64,000 nt of DNA from Candidatus Woesebacteria bacterium (GTDB lineage: Bacteria; Patescibacteriota; Microgenomatia; UBA8517), in the NCBI GenBank assembly GCA_016432365.1, contig CP066686.1:410906-474905 (forward strand), given 5' to 3'. Positions 3,330 to 57,522 of the stretch are shown here, in pieces (the stretch's first letter is position 1; the number at the start of each line of letters is the position of its first letter). Both the position numbers and the translations under genes were made by a program. The notes under the pieces are model-generated. The model searched no databases and was not told where the DNA came from. It was given only the letters and a program-made list of their open reading frames with translations.

Positions 3330-3395
3330 GCTCTGAGCGATGCTCATTGCTGTTTTAGCATTGTAGATATTAATCTGCTAAAATTATACGATTAA

Positions 3396-6114: not shown

Positions 6115-6558
6115 ATGGAATTTAAACGCGATGAATCGAATGGGTCAAAAATGTCTTGGGTCAGAGAATTGGTAGACCCGGATGGATCTTTACCAAAAAT
6201 TGAATTGGAAGACGACCCCCGTCAGAAAGAAAAACATATAAAAAACATATTGCTAGACGGGCAGAAAATTGGTGAACTATCGATAGGCGGAAGCGGCAAG
6301 TTTCGTCATTTTGAAAAAGTTTCCCTTTCGGAAACAGACCGGCCCAAGGGTTGCGGTCTGGCAACTTATCTTTTAGCGATTGAAGAAGCTCAAAAGGATG
6401 GGGCGGTATTCGAAACAACTTCTTGGTATTTGACCGAAGATTCAGTGAAAATTTGGAAAATACTGGCGGAAAAAGGAGTGGCGACGGTTGTTGATGAATT
6501 CGTACAAGTAACTGACGTTCCCCAATTTATGGGCAAATATCGAGTTTATACGAAATAG
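6115..6558 (+). CDS. Small GNAT-fold acetyltransferase-like protein. ORF-track start 6052 overlaps the secA 3' end.
   Basis: R-x-x-G-x-G/A motif RPKGCGLATYLL typical of the GNAT acetyl-CoA loop. Its last 31 codons are duplicated at 8506-8598. Confidence 0.4.
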   Translation: MEFKRDESNGSKMSWVRELVDPDGSLPKIELEDDPRQKEKHIKNILLDGQKIGELSIGGSGKFRHFEKVSLSETDRPKGCGLATYLLAIEEAQKDGAVFETTSWYLTEDSVKIWKILAEKGVATVVDEFVQVTDVPQFMGKYRVYTK

Positions 6559-6580
6559 CCTGATATAATTTTTGCTAAAT
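6465..6580. repeat. Direct repeat copy 1, about 115 bp: the 3' end of gene 6115-6558 plus TGaTATAAT promoter.
   Basis: Aligns with 8506-8620 with 3 mismatches (gaattc/gaattt, gggcaaa/gggtaaa, tagcctg/tagtctg). Confidence 0.85.
6561..6569 (+). promoter_or_regulatory. Extended -10 promoter TGaTATAAT, 9 nt upstream of ATG 6579.
   Basis: TG at 6561-6562, TATAAT at 6564-6569. An identical copy lies at 8602-8610. Confidence 0.45.
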
Positions 6581-7151
6581 GACTGCCAGAACACATAACG
6601 CATTTGCTTTTGCTTCTCTTGTAACAGCGGCTGCTTATTTTCCTCCGACTCACTTAAATTTATCTACCCTGATTCTTGGCATTGTAGGAACGGATATTGG
6701 GGCATTGATTCCGGACATGGATACCGGTGGAAATTATTTGTGGGGGCTTTTGCCGCAAGGCCAGAAATTGGGCGGTTTTTTAAGACGAATATTTTACAAA
6801 CACAGAACGATTACACATTCGCTGTTGGGACTATTTTTGATTTTTAAATTTTTTGCCTGGCTACTTCCCAGGATCTTTAATTCAACTTTTATTGACCCGC
6901 AAATAATTCTTGTGAGCATCATGATTGGTTTTGTTTCGCACCTTATTGCCGACAGTTTTACAGAAGAGGGAATTCCGCTTCTTTACCCGATTCCTTTGAC
7001 ATTTGGAATTCCTCCGATCAAAAAAGTAAGAATTAAAACCGGCCACTGGTTTGAAAATTTTGTAATTTTCCCCGGCATCTGGATTTTCCTAATTTGGTTT
7101 GTAAACATTCATAAAGACATCTTTCTTCAAATTCTCCGGGGGTTAATTTGA
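6579..7151 (+). CDS. DUF457/YdjM-like membrane-bound metal-dependent hydrolase.
   Basis: 190 aa polytopic protein with the conserved His/Asp pattern (HSLLG ... SHLIADSFTEEGIPLLYP) typical of the YdjM family. Confidence 0.5.
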   Translation: MTARTHNAFAFASLVTAAAYFPPTHLNLSTLILGIVGTDIGALIPDMDTGGNYLWGLLPQGQKLGGFLRRIFYKHRTITHSLLGLFLIFKFFAWLLPRIFNSTFIDPQIILVSIMIGFVSHLIADSFTEEGIPLLYPIPLTFGIPPIKKVRIKTGHWFENFVIFPGIWIFLIWFVNIHKDIFLQILRGLI

Positions 7152-7183
7152 TATACTTTCGGTATAGACTACAGAATATTGTT

Positions 7184-8464
7184 ATGGAATATGATAAATC
7201 TTCAGTAAAAAATTCTGAAGTGGACGCTCGTATCCAAGAAGGCGATATTGTTATTTTTCTTGAATCACAAGGAACAGTTGATGGCAAACCTTCAGCGGGT
7301 ACGACCTCTGCTCAGATTTCTTTAATCCATCAGCTACACAGGGATGGGGATAAGGTGATTCTGGCAGATGTCGGCGATAACAATCTAAACAATTTTATCG
7401 TTCCTGGTTCAAGTATTGGCTACGTAAGAACTTCGGAATTGGTACCATTCAGAACTGTGGCCGATGGTGCTTTTGTGCCGGGGGATGAAGAAATAGAAAA
7501 AGAAGAACCTGTGAGTATTAGGATAGGAAAAAAAGATGGTTCAGCTTATATGGTTGATGGTATTTGTAAAGGATACGATTGGCATATAGATGGCTACAGA
7601 GTATCTGTTAAAAACGAGGAAGGGTTAGAAGCTATGCTGCAAGTTGGCAAGGATAATGTCGAAATTAGAAAAGATTCCACAATAGAAGATTTTACAGAAT
7701 TTTGGCTTGAACATAGTAAAAAACGTCCGCCTTATCCTAGTACATATGATAATTCTCAGGTCATGCAGATAGTTAGCCGTGAACCGGAACTCATAAAGAA
7801 ATATTTGCCTATGATTAAAGAGGCTAAAGATGTTTATAAAATATTGGAAATTATCGACAAAAATCCAATGGTTGCACACAAATTATTTGATATTCTTACG
7901 GAAATACCGGAGTTAATAGATGTTTATGCTAAGTTTGCTCTACGTGTGCCTTACTTGTATCAAAATGCAGAAGAGGGTAGGGAATACCACTCGGAACCTA
8001 CCCGGATATCAACCTCCCCCGACCCAGAATTTATAAGAAATAAACTTAATAATATTAAAGAAATCGAACACAAGCTGGAAACATATTTAGAGGGAAGAGA
8101 ATATGCCATAATAGCTGAACCATTGGATGGTTTAGCATTTGTCAGTATTGTTCCGATAAAAGGTAGATCGGGTACAGACGGGGTTTCTATACTGATAGCA
8201 CCCGGGAAGGGAAATGATTTTGTGTCAGTAGCAATTCGAGTTTTTTCTAACGGCACCGTTGATTCGGGTCTAAAGTATAACGATTGGTATGATCTGGGTT
8301 ATATGTTTAAAGAGAACCCGGCAATCGATGAAGAGGAGTTTTTAAATGCTCTGGTTAATAATGTTCCAATGTCAGATGAAATGAATCTGGCTTTGGAAAA
8401 AAGTGGAAGGTCAAATGGTAAACATGGTAAATTCGAAAGACTTGTTCTGCGGAGCGAAGAATAA
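7184..8464 (+). CDS. Hypothetical protein. ORF-track start 7148 is 36 nt upstream in frame.
   Basis: Long ORF, acidic and soluble, no recognised motif. Overlaps the upstream gene by 4 nt if 7148 is used. Confidence 0.45.
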   Translation: MEYDKSSVKNSEVDARIQEGDIVIFLESQGTVDGKPSAGTTSAQISLIHQLHRDGDKVILADVGDNNLNNFIVPGSSIGYVRTSELVPFRTVADGAFVPGDEEIEKEEPVSIRIGKKDGSAYMVDGICKGYDWHIDGYRVSVKNEEGLEAMLQVGKDNVEIRKDSTIEDFTEFWLEHSKKRPPYPSTYDNSQVMQIVSREPELIKKYLPMIKEAKDVYKILEIIDKNPMVAHKLFDILTEIPELIDVYAKFALRVPYLYQNAEEGREYHSEPTRISTSPDPEFIRNKLNNIKEIEHKLETYLEGREYAIIAEPLDGLAFVSIVPIKGRSGTDGVSILIAPGKGNDFVSVAIRVFSNGTVDSGLKYNDWYDLGYMFKENPAIDEEEFLNALVNNVPMSDEMNLALEKSGRSNGKHGKFERLVLRSEE

Positions 8465-8505
8465 TTTTAAAATATGGAAATTGGTTTTCAAGCGGAACGG
8501 CGCGA

Positions 8506-8620
8506 GGCGGAAAAAGGAGTGGCGACGGTTGTTGATGAATTTGTACAAGTAACTGACGTTCCCCAATTTATGGGTAAATATCGAGTTTATACGAAATAGT
8601 CTGATATAATTTTTGCTAAT
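8506..8620. repeat. Direct repeat copy 2. It leaves an orphan 3' gene fragment (…EKGVATVVDEFVQVTDVPQFMGKYRVYTK*) and a second copy of the promoter.
   Basis: See copy 1 at 6465-6580. Confidence 0.85.
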
Positions 8621-9518
8621 GGCAACCAGAATTGAAAATAAAAGTTTTGGCGGAGGAATATATCTATTGATATCTGCTCTAATTTACGGTTTGTATGGAG
8701 TTTATTCAAGATTTATAGGTGCGAGTTTTGGGTCGTTTTCCCAAAGTTGGGTAAGGTCTTTTATAGTTTTAATGATTGTGGTCGTTTTGTTGTTGGTTAA
8801 GAAATTTGAATGGAAGCGGATAGAGAGAAAAGATATAAAGTGGTTTTTGATTTGGATTATACCCACCTCTATTCAACCAGTCATAACATTCACTGCTTTC
8901 AATCATTTACCATTGGCTACAACTTATTTTTTGATTTATTCAACAATGATTTTTGGCGGCGTTTTGTCAGGTAAAATATTTTTCTCGGAAAAATTTAATT
9001 TTGCCAAAGGACTATCATTTTTGTTCATTTTCGTTGGTCTCGTGCTTATATACGGGTCCGATATCAGCTTGGCGACAAATATCTACGTTGTTTTGGCACT
9101 TATATCTGGCTTATTGGTTGGGTTTTGGAATACTCTTACAAAAAAAGTATCCACTCAATATTCGGAATTCCAGATGATGAGTCTCGACCAATTTGCGACA
9201 ATGATTGTTTGTGGGATCGGGGCATTTTTCTTTAGGGAGACTCTACCTCCTCCATCAAATATAAACGCCTGGTTTTGGATTATTGTTTTTGCAGTATCCG
9301 GAGTAGTTACTGTATTTTTCTTGATCAGGGGTTTCAAATATGTGGAAGCCCAAGTCGGTAGTCTTATTCTTCCCATGGAAATTGTTTTTGCTTCAATTTT
9401 TGGACTCTTAATTTTTGGAGAAGTTTTAAAACTCAATACGTATTTGGGAGGATTGTTCATTGTTTTTGCCGCCATCTTGCCGGCGATAGGAAATAAAATA
9501 TTGGGTGAGCGGAAGTGA
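8619..9518 (+). CDS. EamA/DMT-superfamily transporter. ORF-track start TTG 8613.
   Basis: 10 predicted TM helices in a duplicated 5+5 pattern. ATG lies 8 nt after the repeat-borne TATAAT. Confidence 0.65.
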   Translation: MATRIENKSFGGGIYLLISALIYGLYGVYSRFIGASFGSFSQSWVRSFIVLMIVVVLLLVKKFEWKRIERKDIKWFLIWIIPTSIQPVITFTAFNHLPLATTYFLIYSTMIFGGVLSGKIFFSEKFNFAKGLSFLFIFVGLVLIYGSDISLATNIYVVLALISGLLVGFWNTLTKKVSTQYSEFQMMSLDQFATMIVCGIGAFFFRETLPPPSNINAWFWIIVFAVSGVVTVFFLIRGFKYVEAQVGSLILPMEIVFASIFGLLIFGEVLKLNTYLGGLFIVFAAILPAIGNKILGERK

Positions 9519-10068: not shown

Positions 10069-10326
10069 CTATTCTTCAATAATATCTGTAGCGTTAAAAT
10101 ATCCTGAATTGAAGTTTTGGCTTAAGTTTTCAAGGAAAATTTTTCCGTCCTTCGGAAACACCTTTTCTGGTGTTTCTGCAGCGTAATTTATAATGCCTTC
10201 ACTGTTCAGATTTGCGACAAGACCGCTGTCCCCGTCACATTTAACAGAGTTGTTTTCAAGCACGCAAGTACAAATCACTTTCTGTGACCCGTCATTTTCC
10301 AGTTTGTATATTAATACTTTGGCCAT
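10069..10326 (-). CDS. Hypothetical small protein, 85 aa; last gene of a 3-gene minus operon.
   Basis: ORF overlapping the upstream gene by 16 nt, which suggests translational coupling. Confidence 0.4.
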   Translation of the reverse strand: MAKVLIYKLENDGSQKVICTCVLENNSVKCDGDSGLVANLNSEGIINYAAETPEKVFPKDGKIFLENLSQNFNSGYFNATDIIEE

Positions 10327-11120
10327 ATTGATTCCGTCGATCCAGGATGATAAGTAAAATCATTCATATCGTCCCAGCTAATTTTACCGCGAGCAAGAAA
10401 TTTGTTTGCTTGATTAATTCTGGCAAACATTGCGTCAATTGTTTTGCCCGGAACAAGTTCTTCTAAAGCCTCTCTTAACCTGTTTTGCTTTTCGTCACTC
10501 GTTAGAAAACTGTCATACTGTTTTGCTAAAGTAGTTGGGATGAGTCTGCCTGCTACCATTTTTGATAAATTCTCGGGTATCCATCCTCGGAGCCACTCGT
10601 TGAACGAAACCCCATTGTCAATTGCAATAACCCGACGGTCTTTTATAAATAAGTTTTCCGGTTTCCTGTCTTTATTCCAGACAACATAGTCGAAAATAGC
10701 GATTTCAAACAACTGGCCCCTTACAGCTTCTTTTTCCCCGTCTCCAGTTTCCCTAAGTGTTCGTTTTGGATCCGGAATAAAATCCTGAATACTCCCCTCA
10801 GCCCCATTGATTGTTCTAATTATTGTAGGGGGAACAAGTCCCGGGTGTAGTGCTTTTGATACAAGATATGCGGCCCGTTCCCTTTTATATAACAAACGAT
10901 GCGATTCGGGAAATTCCCATAAGGTGTCTTCACCCCTGCCCGGTTTAAAAACTCCATTTCCATCCCCTCCAAAATATATCAGCTGTACGATATTACTTCC
11001 CCCAATCAAATTTTTTGTTCTACCCTCATCAATAGGAAGAGTTAAGAGTTCCGTTTCTCTTGAGTCTGAAATAGCTAGTATGTCGGGATTTTGAGGGAGA
11101 TCTCTTGGGAGCGCGTCCAT
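10311..11120 (-). CDS. Protein-kinase-like fold protein (atypical, ePK/PI3K-like catalytic motifs).
   Basis: NKDRKPENLFI resembles the ePK catalytic loop HRDLKPEN. IAIDNG lies 17 residues later in the position of DFG. A Gly-rich stretch GGDGNGVFKP is near the N-terminus. Confidence 0.5.
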   Translation of the reverse strand: MDALPRDLPQNPDILAISDSRETELLTLPIDEGRTKNLIGGSNIVQLIYFGGDGNGVFKPGRGEDTLWEFPESHRLLYKRERAAYLVSKALHPGLVPPTIIRTINGAEGSIQDFIPDPKRTLRETGDGEKEAVRGQLFEIAIFDYVVWNKDRKPENLFIKDRRVIAIDNGVSFNEWLRGWIPENLSKMVAGRLIPTTLAKQYDSFLTSDEKQNRLREALEELVPGKTIDAMFARINQANKFLARGKISWDDMNDFTYHPGSTESIWPKY

Positions 11121-11126
11121 TTAAAT

Positions 11127-11630
11127 TTACTTTCCTTCTCTTTTTTCTCGGGATTTTTCTACCAATTCTCTTATACCATTACGCTGAAGAGCAAGAAGTT
11201 TAATATTGCCATCAGAGCTTAGTCGAACTCTTTCAAAAGCCCTTACAAATTCCATGTCACCCTGTATCCTAATAAGTTCATCTACATCTGAGGGCAAATC
11301 GGAACCACACCAAGAGTCCCTAATTTTATCAAAAACCTCCCCAGTCATTACCTGAGGTCCTGCAATTGCCCTGAGAAGTACTGAAAAAACAGGGTCAACA
11401 TTTCCGCGAAAATTAACATCGCCCCTCATCAAATATTCCGGGGTCAACTCGTCCATGTGGTCGCTCATAACGGTAATGTATTCTTTAACCACCTCATCCG
11501 CTCTATCTTCCCACTGCGATGGAGTTGCATCCCAACTCAACCTATTCATAAATCTATTGAAATGCCTGTCAGCTAGGGTTAACTTGTCCAGAAAAGAATC
11601 TTGTCTGCTTTCCTCGTAAAAATGATCCAT
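11127..11630 (-). CDS. Hypothetical protein, 167 aa; first gene of the operon.
   Basis: ATG lies 8 nt downstream of a TTGACA-N17-TAGATT promoter, so the transcript is leaderless. Confidence 0.5.
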   Translation of the reverse strand: MDHFYEESRQDSFLDKLTLADRHFNRFMNRLSWDATPSQWEDRADEVVKEYITVMSDHMDELTPEYLMRGDVNFRGNVDPVFSVLLRAIAGPQVMTGEVFDKIRDSWCGSDLPSDVDELIRIQGDMEFVRAFERVRLSSDGNIKLLALQRNGIRELVEKSREKREGK

Positions 11631-11667
11631 TGATAATCAATCTAAAATATTCAATTTCGAATGTCAA
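11631..11667 (-). promoter_or_regulatory. Sigma70-like promoter TTGACA-N17-TAGATT for the 11630-10069 operon.
   Basis: rc of 11662-11667 = TTGACA. Two TTCGAA palindromes in the divergent intergenic region may be operators. Confidence 0.4.
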
Positions 11668-11721
11668 GATCTAATAACCATCGGTATTCACAAATACTCA
11701 ATTTGTCAGATTCGAAACTTC

Positions 11722-13986
11722 TTGACCGTTAAGTGGAAAAAGATGTTTAAAAAGAATAAAATTCTAATTGCTGGTAATAAAAAAATGGAAACAAGACTAC
11801 CTGTACGAGATCGAATCATTCCCAGAACGCTTGATGTGTTGACTCAACCAATTCGAAGCGGTTTGGATTACGGTTTGCATAAAGTTACGCGTGGTAAATA
11901 TAAGGCCGATCTCGAATTATATTTCGGCCCCCATGAACACAAGTCAGAGATTGATAAAGGTTTACATGATACTGCGCAGGTCCTTACCGACATCGATGAA
12001 AAACTTGCGGGTGGGAGCGAATTCATAGGCGATAAGTTTGAGGTTTGGAAAAAGGTAAAAACCGAACTGGAGGATCATGTTGGCTTAAAAATAACCGACC
12101 AAGTTTTGATAGACCGGAAAGGTGGCAACCATGTTCTATTTGCAGAAAAGGACGACAAAATTGTCCCCATATTTCTATCGGGAGTATCAACCGAGGGCGA
12201 CACGAGAAGTCTTTTTGGCATCGGCAATGAGTATCCAAAAGAAGCAAATACCTCAGAGAACGTAGCCAGAGAATTGACAATATTCAAAATAATGGAGGCC
12301 GAGGCCTTAGAACCGGAAAATTATAAATTGAGAAAGGTTGATTCGGTTGCAAATGATTTTGAACTACGGAGGCATGCACTTTTTGAAAGAGAAGGTGATG
12401 AGTTTGAAGCAATAAGAGCTCAAGGCGCCCTAAGTATAGGCGAGCTGCAAACTGTTTCCAGGCTTTTGCTTTTTGGGGGAATAACTTTTGAAGAAGGAGA
12501 AGTAAGAACAAGTCCGTCACTTGAAGACATTTGGATTAAAACAAGGATGATCTCCATGGGCGAAAATGTGGATACAAAAACAGCTCAGGCAGTAGCTCAA
12601 AAAGAAATTGCTCAATTCGCTAAGGAGGTCGTTTATTTTCGTTTGGCCCAACAATATTTTGTAGAACACCCCGACGTGACCAGAGAATTTATGAAATCGG
12701 AATACTACCTCCAACATCGAAAAGATTTTATAAATTCGCATCTTGCTGCCCGTGGCCAAACGGAAGAAAAAATTGCCGAAGCTATGCTTGCGAATTATTG
12801 TCTTGCAAGGTTCGAAAAAACAGACATAGAAAATTCTCCATCCCAAAAATACATTAAGGATAAAGAAGGCTTCATGGGGGATATTGACAACTTTTTGACA
12901 GGTTTGGGTGTCTTTGTCCCGGGTGAAATTAGAGATTTAGCTACAGAGCTAAAAGGAGCCTTAGTCAATAAAGTTATAAGCTACAATCAAAGATATGTTG
13001 CCCTGGCCGAGGCCAAACGATCTTTAGAGAAGGTTGCAAATGAAATATGGCGCCACAAAGAAACACGGAAAATATTTGATCGATTGGTACAGCTGTCTCC
13101 ATTTGATTTTGTCGATGATAAAGAAAAACCGGTAAAAGTATTCAGAGTGATTATTGGTAATTTAGGTCTTGCCAAGGTTCCAGGTGAGGGTAAATTCACA
13201 ATGTCGAGCTATTTACCAAAAGTTCCATATTATCCGGAAGGCAGTGAGGTTTTGCCGTTCGATCCCGAAAAGGCAAGACACGCAAAAATTATCGATTCGA
13301 TAAAGTGTATATTTGACGGGAGTGTTTTGCCGCCAAGCGGTTCTGGTGAAAAGGCTAGCGCATATGAATCTCAGGTGACGAGAATTTATACGGAAGGAAC
13401 CACGATTTTAAGATTTTTGACTGAAGATCCGAGAATCCCTGATAACGTTAGGGAATTTGTACAAGCAATAACAAGCGACAATCTTGGCCAAAAAATTCTG
13501 GAACGTTATGGTCCGGTTAGCGATCAAGATCCTCAAATAGTCAACAGGTTTTTTAAAGACGGCTTCGACCGTTTTCAGACAATGATAACCCATCGTTATG
13601 TCACCGATTTTGTTAGAGGAGTCGAAACAAATTTAATACTTCTTACGGGGGGCACAGGGGATAAAGTAAGCAGGCAATTTATGGGGGATTGGAAGAATTT
13701 TGATTTTTCTCAATTACCGGATGAAGTTGTAGATAAAGCGATTGAGATGACACTCGCGGACGGCAAACACAGACTTGAGCTACTTAACCATGAGACGTCG
13801 GAAAGAACAACGCTAAAAGATAAGCAGGAACTTTTGGAAAAAGTTTTCGGTTGGAATACTTACGATATGTGGTTTTTGAGATGGGAGAAATTCTGGAATG
13901 TTTGGAATACTTTGGGGGGCGCTTGGGACTGTATATGTTTTATGAGAAAACCGATATTTAACCCTGGCACCATCAAGCAATTTTGA
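11722..13986 (+). CDS. Large hypothetical cytoplasmic protein, about 750 aa; start uncertain (11722 TTG, 11743 ATG or 11782 ATG).
   Basis: Long ORF divergent from the kinase-like operon. No P-loop or other recognised motif. Confidence 0.55.
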   Translation: MTVKWKKMFKKNKILIAGNKKMETRLPVRDRIIPRTLDVLTQPIRSGLDYGLHKVTRGKYKADLELYFGPHEHKSEIDKGLHDTAQVLTDIDEKLAGGSEFIGDKFEVWKKVKTELEDHVGLKITDQVLIDRKGGNHVLFAEKDDKIVPIFLSGVSTEGDTRSLFGIGNEYPKEANTSENVARELTIFKIMEAEALEPENYKLRKVDSVANDFELRRHALFEREGDEFEAIRAQGALSIGELQTVSRLLLFGGITFEEGEVRTSPSLEDIWIKTRMISMGENVDTKTAQAVAQKEIAQFAKEVVYFRLAQQYFVEHPDVTREFMKSEYYLQHRKDFINSHLAARGQTEEKIAEAMLANYCLARFEKTDIENSPSQKYIKDKEGFMGDIDNFLTGLGVFVPGEIRDLATELKGALVNKVISYNQRYVALAEAKRSLEKVANEIWRHKETRKIFDRLVQLSPFDFVDDKEKPVKVFRVIIGNLGLAKVPGEGKFTMSSYLPKVPYYPEGSEVLPFDPEKARHAKIIDSIKCIFDGSVLPPSGSGEKASAYESQVTRIYTEGTTILRFLTEDPRIPDNVREFVQAITSDNLGQKILERYGPVSDQDPQIVNRFFKDGFDRFQTMITHRYVTDFVRGVETNLILLTGGTGDKVSRQFMGDWKNFDFSQLPDEVVDKAIEMTLADGKHRLELLNHETSERTTLKDKQELLEKVFGWNTYDMWFLRWEKFWNVWNTLGGAWDCICFMRKPIFNPGTIKQF

Positions 13987-14519
13987 TGAAGTTTTTTAAA
14001 AGATACACGAAAGTTTGGGGGATATTAATTGCTGTATTAATTTCCCTGTTAATTTTTATCTTCCGGGACAAGCTTGCCGGCCTTCAGACTTATGGCTTTT
14101 TTGGTCTTTTCTTGCTAAACATAGTTGGTAGCGCAACATTGTTTTTACCCACCCCACTTTTTTTATCGGCATTTGTTGCTGGTTCAATTTATAACCCAAT
14201 TTTAGTGGCAATAGTAGCGTCAGCCGGTTCGGCTATTGGGGAACTTACCGGGTATCTGGCCGGTTATGGGGCGGAGGATATTTTGGAAAAAGACATAAAA
14301 GTCCAAAAGATTAAAGGGTGGATGAAAAAGCGAGGCTTTTTGACTCTTTTTTTGTTGGCGGCAATTCCAAATCCGGTATTTGACATGGCTGGGTTTGTAG
14401 CCGGGGCAACAGATGTTTCGGTTAAAAAGTACCTAATCGCTGTTTGGTTGGGAAAACTTGTTAAATTTTCTGTGATATCGTATGCCGGAGCGAGCTCGCT
14501 GGCATTATTTGGAGTATAA
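13983..14519 (+). CDS. DedA/YqaA (SNARE-associated TVP38) family membrane protein.
   Basis: Conserved pattern LPTPLF ... G..IGELTGYLAGYG. Confidence 0.6.
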   Translation: MMKFFKRYTKVWGILIAVLISLLIFIFRDKLAGLQTYGFFGLFLLNIVGSATLFLPTPLFLSAFVAGSIYNPILVAIVASAGSAIGELTGYLAGYGAEDILEKDIKVQKIKGWMKKRGFLTLFLLAAIPNPVFDMAGFVAGATDVSVKKYLIAVWLGKLVKFSVISYAGASSLALFGV

Positions 14520-14769: not shown

Positions 14770-14789
14770 TTTGATGCTAAAATCTCCTC

Positions 14790-18647: not shown

Positions 18648-18778
18648 TGCCTCACGTCTTTTGACTGGGAAACCGGTCAGTTTTTTTGCGACTGGGATTT
18701 CAGTGTAAAAAGTGAACATTAACATCTTGAGATTCAAAGATAGTTAAAACATTTCAAAAAGGTTCAAGGAGGAACCAA

Positions 18779-21603: not shown

Positions 21604-21770
21604 GTTGAATCTCAAGATTTAGTTTTACGGCGACCGCGCTGACATTTAGGCCATTAATTTGGTAAAATGTCAGCCGGTCGCCAGATTCATTGAGTTCAGA
21701 AATCATTTCTGGATTCAAAAATCATATTTTTGCACGTTAACATCTTGAGATTCTAAGAAAGGAGTAGCTC
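21604..21770. repeat. Structured intergenic repeat element E1.
   Basis: Contains gaatctcaagat (21607-21618), ttttacggcga, a 19-bp inverted repeat (21629-21647 / 21665-21682), a cagaaat-c-atttctg hairpin (21696-21711) and aacatcttgagattc (21739-21753). Homologous to E2 at 23789-24019. Confidence 0.55.
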
Positions 21771-54443: not shown

Positions 54444-54466
54444 TTTGTGTTAAAATTTGACTACTC

Positions 54467-57477: not shown

Positions 57478-57522
57478 AACTTCTAAGTCGCAGGGATCTA
57501 TGATTAGTGGTACAATTTAGCC

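Follow-up and report, generated by a model that had tools for sequence, protein, structure and literature searches.

The interval between the SecA and FKBP genes of a Candidatus Woesebacteria genome contains a 114-nt direct repeat that carries the 3′ end of one gene and a promoter-like sequence, placed once in front of a gene for a YdjM-type membrane hydrolase (YdjM) and once in front of a gene for an EamA-family transporter (EamA). We analyzed this repeat in a 64,000-nt stretch of DNA (the window) taken from a 1.08-Mb contig (CP066686.1, positions 410,906 to 474,905 of the forward strand) of a metagenome-assembled genome. Copy 1 (6465-6578) and copy 2 (8506-8619) are identical at 111 of 114 positions and are offset by 2041 bp. 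The duplicated gene end belongs to gene A, which has a predicted GNAT fold, and the block between the copies holds YdjM and gene Z. The repeat is not an assembly artifact. YdjM and Z are residents of the SecA-to-FKBP interval and not a newly arrived cassette, and the interval itself is a hot spot that varies between lineages. On balance, we regard the repeat as probably the scar of a local rearrangement, left by illegitimate recombination within the lineage. EamA now appears to stand behind a copy of the YdjM promoter, its own upstream region presumably having been lost.

The 114-nt repeat and the genes around it

The features of the locus, all on the forward strand and numbered as in the window, are the following.

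6115-6558, + strand: gene A (HYV90_02415), 147 aa, GNAT fold as predicted; its native 3′ end is the coding part of copy 1
6465-6578, + strand: repeat copy 1, comprising the last 30 codons and stop of gene A (6466-6558) and then a 20-nt intergenic promoter (predicted)
6561-6569, + strand: extended −10 box TGATATAAT of a predicted leaderless-type promoter, ending 9 nt before the YdjM start codon (ATG 6579)
6579-7151, + strand: YdjM/DUF457 membrane hydrolase (PF04307, E 6.6e-25)
7184-8464, + strand: gene Z (HYV90_02425), 426 aa, two domains, with a variable N-terminal part of ~100 aa
8465-8505, + strand: unique 41-nt spacer from the Z stop to copy 2, ending at the left junction of the duplication (8505/8506)
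8474-8599, + strand: putative 41-codon open reading frame (ORF), read from the sequence, encoding MEIGFQAERRE followed by the orphan A fragment; its ATG lies 9 nt past the Z stop
8506-8619, + strand: repeat copy 2, comprising an orphan 30-codon fragment of A (8507-8599, same frame) and the promoter copy
8602-8610, + strand: extended −10 box TGATATAAT of copy 2, ending 8 nt before the EamA start codon (ATG 8619)
8619-9518, + strand: EamA-family transporter (PF00892, E 9e-25)

The three mismatches between the copies (6501/8542, 6534/8575, and 6559/8600) are each a C in copy 1 and a T in copy 2, and they leave perfect runs of 36, 32, 24, and 19 nt. At the left edge (6464/8505), the similarity drops abruptly from 97% to background. 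On the right, it ends at the start codons, where a 1-nt indel in an A-run (AAATG vs. AATG) lies just 5′ of ATG 6579 and ATG 8619. The 32-nt core has exactly two matches within the window, where none is expected, and no other repeat longer than 44 nt occurs in the 64 kb. An earlier, sequence-only reading of this DNA had described direct repeats, an orphaned C-terminal piece of a gene, and two genes each preceded by a promoter copy. This anatomy is borne out by the match and its content, as is the count of three mismatches, but the ends given there for the copies (6580 and 8620) overshoot slightly, since the indel breaks the register before the start codons. We also considered a continuation of the repeat into the first codons (ATGaCtgCCAGAA vs. 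ATGgCaaCCAGAA) and rejected it, there being four differences in those 13 nt beside three in 114 nt. The MTART start is native to YdjM in all relatives and, taken together with this mismatch density, speaks for a junction that does not extend past the ATG.

Both coding differences between the copies are synonymous, an outcome with a chance probability of ∼0.10, and the codons of outgroups were uninformative about the ancestral state of the three mismatched positions. The 41-nt spacer (8465-8505) shows no similarity to any other sequence within the window or in 22 fetched loci. No inverted repeats were found at the ends of the bracketed block. Likewise, no Rfam match was obtained in or near the repeat, and folding of 8440-8625 gave a z score of −0.09 and hence no excess structure.

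The physical reality of the repeat was checked independently with Logan k=31 contigs of run SRR12113421. Three of these (L022, ending at 6494; L018, covering 6504-8535; and L019, starting at 8545) match the window with 0 mismatches, and they break at the exact positions predicted from the 31-mers that two copies with these three mismatches would have in common. L018 contains the junction from Z through the spacer into the repeat (8505/8506) and joins the copy 1 variants to YdjM, while L019 links the copy 2-specific T8575 and T8600 to EamA; both contigs are present in three samples each. It is this fit of the contig breaks to the two-copy prediction that excludes an assembly artifact. A chimera of two coexisting strains, or some other artifact, could be suspected on the grounds that the source genome is metagenome assembled and that, at k=31, a graph does not connect the first mismatch in phase with the others, so that the Logan unitigs taken alone would formally also admit an “excised” resolution, with A-promoter-EamA on the one hand and a 2041-bp circle on the other. 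We find this scarcely credible, however. The copies differ at three positions, whereas artifactual repeats are normally exact, the junction of Z plus 41 nt to the repeat occurs in an independently assembled contig and in three samples, and the variants specific to copy 1 and copy 2 are joined to YdjM and EamA, respectively. Furthermore, the stretches common to both copies are at most 36 nt, far below read length, and could be spanned by the original assembler.

Gene A has no Pfam or NCBIfam match at E ≤ 0.1 and no sequence match in the Protein Data Bank (PDB), but its AlphaFold2 model (predicted local distance difference test, pLDDT, 79.8; predicted template modeling score, pTM, 0.73) retrieved GNAT acetyltransferases in all of the top 50 Foldseek matches in the PDB, with E values down to 7e-5 and template modeling scores of about 0.5. 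The model, thus, supports membership of A in GNAT at the level of the fold, and the earlier label “GNAT-like” holds at that level although profile searches were negative. The segment R76-P-K-G-C-G81, invariant in three homologs, fits the R-x-x-G-x-G motif. The homolog search returned only three clusters including A itself (the identical P0001) and no second strain. The C terminus of A is conserved in the homologs, and the duplicated tail spans the final two β-strands of the predicted fold.

YdjM is a widespread Woesebacteria gene of ∼190 aa with 391 homologs. The Pfam matches listed above confirm the earlier YdjM-like and EamA labels. Gene Z had been read as encoding 438 aa; alignment with its homologs makes 426 aa from ATG 7184 the more likely length. 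Profile hidden Markov model and structure searches on this protein found no family: there was no match in Pfam, NCBIfam, PHROG, PADLOC, or PDB-profile searches, and the AlphaFold2 model (pLDDT 36) was unusable. The Z family is rare, with 25 relatives among 1.8 billion representatives in a HMMER library search. These relatives, none of them annotated, have a two-domain build, and one of them has an S1-like match at its N terminus. A scan of metagenome and viral contigs found no relatives of Z. EamA is 83% identical to its ortholog in locus L001, and a genome scan with EamA found relatives only at 83% identity or less.

Both −10 boxes fit the TGnTATAAT consensus at a suitable distance from the start codon. 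The promoter sequence TGATATAATTTT also occurs 6 nt before the YdjM ATG in the relative L020, where another gene separates SecA from YdjM. Among 58 crude gene calls in the window, TGnTAnnnT ends 4-13 nt 5′ of the first start codon in 9 (0.6 expected, a 15-fold enrichment), whereas a Shine–Dalgarno-like 4-mer was found for only 13. Genes with such a box include SecA (3376-3384) and TGT (14775-14783), and further boxes lie at 54448-54456 and 57508-57516. From the enrichment, leaderless or near-leaderless expression seems to be frequent in this Woesebacteria genome, and extended −10 promoters of the leaderless type may be a normal expression route in it.

The SecA-to-FKBP interval in Woesebacteria

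We compared the context of YdjM in six Woesebacteria relatives, whose gene orders are as follows.

L014: SecA-YdjM-DUF5674-...-FKBP-VTT-TGT
L017: SecA-YdjM-FKBP
L015 and L016: SecA-[one or two large genes]-YdjM-FKBP
L020: SecA-240aa-YdjM-...-FKBP
L021: SecA-[8 genes including a Phd/ParE pair]-YdjM

YdjM lies downstream of SecA in all six, and FKBP follows further downstream in five (L014, L015, L016, L017, and L020). It stands directly after SecA in L014 and L017, with one to eight variable genes between the two in L015, L016, L020, and L021. The SecA-to-YdjM slot appears to be a general insertion hot spot. The identities of SecA and YdjM to their counterparts in the window run in parallel (82/81, 79/77, 82/76, 81/73, and 69/64%), as vertical inheritance predicts.

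As to what these slots hold, their inserts are unrelated. That of L021 (2594-6991) contains the Phd/ParE toxin–antitoxin pair, a C39 peptidase, and a DsbA-like protein. A single 1592-aa ORF fills the slot of L015 (3210-7988), and in L016 (3241-7988) it is split into genes of 658 aa (a phosphoesterase) and 934 aa.

The closest relatives of the window, L001 and L003, have a SecA that is 96% identical at the amino acid level. A and YdjM are absent from both loci. In both, a Z homolog stands between SecA and EamA as part of an eight-gene island, and this island is followed by EamA-DUF5674-FKBP-VTT-TGT. The order SecA...Z...EamA...FKBP is, thus, common to the window, L001, and L003, and the nucleotide identities of Z, EamA, and FKBP fall in the range of that of SecA. 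From the Z stop to EamA, the window has 162 nt (the spacer, copy 2, and the first EamA codons) vs. 3.1 kb with three genes in L001. The region 5′ of EamA in L001 has no relation to the repeat; at the nucleotide level, L001 and the window are homologous here only from 8627 on.

In more distant lineages, SecA is followed directly by EamA (L011 and L012) or directly by a homolog of A (L008 and L009, which hold the two homologs of A other than itself). The A homologs are followed by flavokinase or NUDIX genes, and the gene ahead of EamA homologs is SecA or another gene. An empty site, with A followed directly by EamA, was not found in any relative examined, the nearest of which are at most 83% identical in EamA. 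A search for the exact 32-nt core in metagenome contigs and viral contigs found nothing.

Z has a repeat-flanked setting in the sister lineage as well. In L001, and equally in L003, a 234-aa gene and the Z homolog are together bracketed by an 80-nt direct repeat (9111-9190 and 11279-11358) with 90% identity and 2168-nt spacing. The palindrome TATCCGAATAATCGATTAATCGGATA stands at its beginning, its second copy starts 6 nt past the Z stop, and EamA is preceded by part of a third copy (CGATTAATCGGATA, 14279-14292). This repeat looks like a shared operator or promoter module. A motif, CATTTCAAAA..TGCC..T.CCCAA, precedes four consecutive genes of the L001 island (those for 234-aa, 244-aa, APH-like, and Bro-N-like proteins; sites at 9165-9190, 11333-11358, 12138-12180, and 13334-13376), which suggests that this accessory island may be coregulated. 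The 234-aa and 244-aa genes were compared as possible paralogs and are not. Neither the palindrome nor the CATTTCAAAA...CCCAA motif was found in the window.

The Z genes themselves are unevenly conserved. Their last 261 nt (window 8204-8464, L001 11012-11272) have 8 differences and are 97% identical, vs. about 64–91% for the rest of Z and 76–95% across SecA, whereas the N-terminal ∼100 aa are only about 45% identical to those of L001. The homology of Z to L001 and L003 ends exactly at the stop codon. The 261-nt tract is probably a recent tract of recombination between lineages that meets a homology boundary.

Some further observations concern the surroundings of the repeat. A second lineage-specific island in the window, between FKBP and the VTT-domain gene (10069-14004), holds an 85-aa ORF, a PI3/PI4-kinase-like protein of 269 aa, a 167-aa protein, and a 754-aa protein without family matches; L001 and L003 lack this island and have VTT directly after FKBP. 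At 18713-18743 and 21731-21761, a 31-nt direct repeat with 87% identity (TG(A/C)AC(A/G)TTAACATCTTGAGATTC...) lies ∼40–65 nt 5′ of two unannotated genes (ATG 18779 and ATG 21771) and may be a shared regulatory site; its first copy falls between genes, in DNA conserved at 92% with L001. Finally, the record CAZBTH010000006.1 (GCA_964494885.1; L010/L001) is labeled “uncultured Gammaproteobacteria bacterium” and is probably misclassified or misbinned, since its SecA is 96% identical to that of the Woesebacteria window and its locus is syntenic.

Origin of the repeat

Gene A is intact and has a conserved C terminus, the sequence TGATATAATTTT precedes YdjM in L020 as well, and the DNA upstream of EamA in L001 is unrelated to the repeat. 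From these three points, we infer that copy 1 is the original and that copy 2 is derived. In copy 1, the authentic 3′ end of A would then adjoin the leaderless-type extended −10 promoter native to the resident YdjM, and copy 2 would have been placed 41 nt past the Z stop and fused to the EamA ATG, either exactly there or no more than a few bases away, by illegitimate, microhomology-guided recombination within the lineage. Two routes could lead to this outcome. In route (a), a 2041-bp tandem duplication of the segment comprising the A 3′ end, promoter, YdjM, and Z (junction 8505|6465) would come first, and the second YdjM-Z copy would then be deleted as far as the EamA ATG. In route (b), a double template switch in one replication event would copy the 114 nt and skip the DNA between Z and EamA. 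Both routes stay within one lineage and, thus, fit the residency of YdjM and Z. In either case, EamA would come to be driven by a copy of the YdjM promoter, with the 30-codon A fragment as a by-product or passenger. Once formed, the two copies, with longest perfect runs of 36 and 32 nt, may make YdjM-Z deletable by homologous recombination.

The marks of a segmental duplication are present: the copies have the same orientation, one is native and intact and the other truncated, and the boundaries are abrupt. The sequence-only reading had offered, as one possibility, a segmental duplication whose inner copy was replaced. Taken as a duplication whose inner copy was subsequently lost, that proposal comes close to our preferred explanation. 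That reading also held the event to be recent. The copies differ by 2.6%, far less than the roughly 14–19% by which the flanking genes differ from the nearest sister lineage, which dates the event to after the split from that lineage but does not imply that it is very recent.

Several observations weigh against such a scar. Neither the predu­plication state nor an intermediate was seen, and no full 2-kb tandem occurs among the genomes found. The tandem route needs two events, the second of which has to end at the EamA ATG, and the left junction shows no clear microhomology. Convergence on a consensus could account for the 12-nt promoter match to L020. Lastly, the sister lineage’s own 80-nt repeat around a Z-containing pair gives a hint of a recurring process linked to Z, for which the model has no explanation.

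The arrangement might instead stem from displacement by DNA of a sibling strain, through homology-facilitated illegitimate recombination (HFIR) or a Campbell-type single crossover, an origin that we consider doubtful but which has several points in its favor. The resident state would have been SecA-A-promoter-EamA. An incoming fragment or circle from a close relative, carrying the A 3′ end, promoter, YdjM, and Z, would have been anchored by homology in A and closed by an illegitimate join at 8505/8506, pushing the old A 3′ end, promoter, and EamA downstream; the three mismatches would then represent strain divergence and not time since the event. The structure matches that of C-terminal displacement arrays, in which an orphan 3′ fragment with short homology comes after an intact gene; for such arrays at Rhs and type VI secretion system (T6SS) loci, HFIR is the proposed origin (PMC5361080). 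The Z 3′ tract, at 97% identity to L001 and L003 vs. about 80–86% elsewhere in the locus, points to recent recombination between lineages at this very locus, and other lineages have SecA next to A or next to EamA. However, no genome was found in which A is directly followed by EamA, and YdjM and Z occupy their usual syntenic slots. The promoter box, moreover, appears native to YdjM, so that the supposed resident state would need a prior precise deletion of YdjM and, with it, two events in two strains. Where measured, HFIR is also orders of magnitude rarer than homologous recombination (PMC5361080).

A different view takes the 114-nt repeats as attL and attR of a mobile cassette, with YdjM and Z excisable by site-specific recombination, which is akin to the two-gene insertion or exchange at an att-like site that the sequence-only reading had put forward. 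Near-identical direct repeats around a discrete 1.9-kb block would indeed restore the 3′ end of the target gene, and a Z-containing pair lies between direct repeats (80 nt, 90%) in the sister lineage too. Nevertheless, we judge a cassette very improbable. Neither the block itself nor the ORFs scanned in 0-30 kb yielded an integrase, transposase, or relaxase, and Pfam, PHROG, and NCBIfam searches of the block gave YdjM only. No tRNA or transfer-messenger RNA target or Rfam element was found near the repeat, nor any terminal inverted repeat or attC-like structure; this lack of an integrase or transposase, tRNA, inverted repeat, and hairpin argues against site-specific or transpositional insertion. 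The supposed cargo includes a vertically inherited syntenic gene, the repeats of the two lineages have no visible common core (compared by eye, not aligned), and both Z and the repeat are absent from the viral contigs scanned. With YdjM and Z resident and no empty site in relatives, the att-like insertion is not supported. Two more specific forms fit no better: a transposon or insertion sequence because the repeat measures 114 nt, vs. 2–14 bp for a target-site duplication, and inverted repeats and a transposase are lacking, and an integron cassette because there is no IntI and the near-zero folding score of 8440-8625 leaves no attC hairpin.

A further idea is gene swapping free of integrases, in which Z modules would be recurrently inserted or popped out through recombination, each time duplicating the promoter region of a neighbor. 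The 80-nt repeat of L001 and the conserved 3′ end of Z earn it a small probability, and we think it unlikely. Compatible with it are the sister lineage’s repeat around the 234-aa gene and Z, whose second copy lies just past the Z stop, and the 3′ end of Z, 97% identical between lineages vs. about 85% elsewhere. In both lineages, furthermore, EamA has upstream sequence in common with the gene that comes before Z, although the sequences themselves differ from one lineage to the other.

Significance and comparison with known systems

If the repeat is the local duplication scar that we favor, it is one more case of an already known type of event, namely a duplication scar that also duplicates a promoter, in a variable chromosomal slot. 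It would provide an independently verified case of a compact, recombination-poor Patescibacteria genome rewiring expression, as far as can be read from the sequence: a 114-nt copy of a predicted leaderless-type promoter, with a gene fragment in tow, now stands before a transporter gene. The comparison further identifies the SecA-to-FKBP interval as a hot spot of rearrangement throughout Woesebacteria, which is useful for comparative and population studies of the gain and loss of accessory genes in reduced genomes. No new mobile element or recombination system is revealed. Should the recurrent movement of Z modules prove true, the repeats would be a working part of gene swapping in bacteria with tiny genomes and not a passive scar.

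Among known systems, integron cassettes resemble the locus in having promoter-proximal genes in a variable array. They differ in that IntI and the imperfect inverted repeats of attC are missing here and in that the repeat itself carries the predicted promoter. With integrative elements bounded by attL and attR, the locus shares repeats that include the 3′ end of a gene left intact on one side; here, however, there is no integrase, no tRNA target, and no empty site in relatives, and the “element” would consist of 1.9 kb of resident genes.

The orphan-module arrays of Rhs, CdiA, and T6SS loci (PMC5361080) come closer in layout. They, too, have an intact gene and, some genes later, an orphan 3′ fragment with short homology, in a locus that lies between conserved genes and varies among relatives. 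In contrast to the divergent toxin tips of those arrays, the orphan here is 97% identical to the resident 3′ end. Gene A is a small protein of predicted GNAT fold and no toxin, the next gene encodes an EamA transporter and not an immunity protein, and the “incoming” genes are syntenic residents.

The closest likeness is to remodeled tandem or segmental duplications with promoter capture, in which a deletion that forms the junction comes after the duplication, as in bacterial duplication-amplification-remodeling. Common to these and the present locus are direct repeats with one native and one truncated copy, abrupt edges, the lack of mobility genes, and a downstream gene that ends up behind a copied promoter. 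The locus differs from them in that the full 2-kb tandem intermediate was not observed and in that the right junction lies at a start codon, a position that fits a promoter of the leaderless type, where the spacing to the ATG matters.

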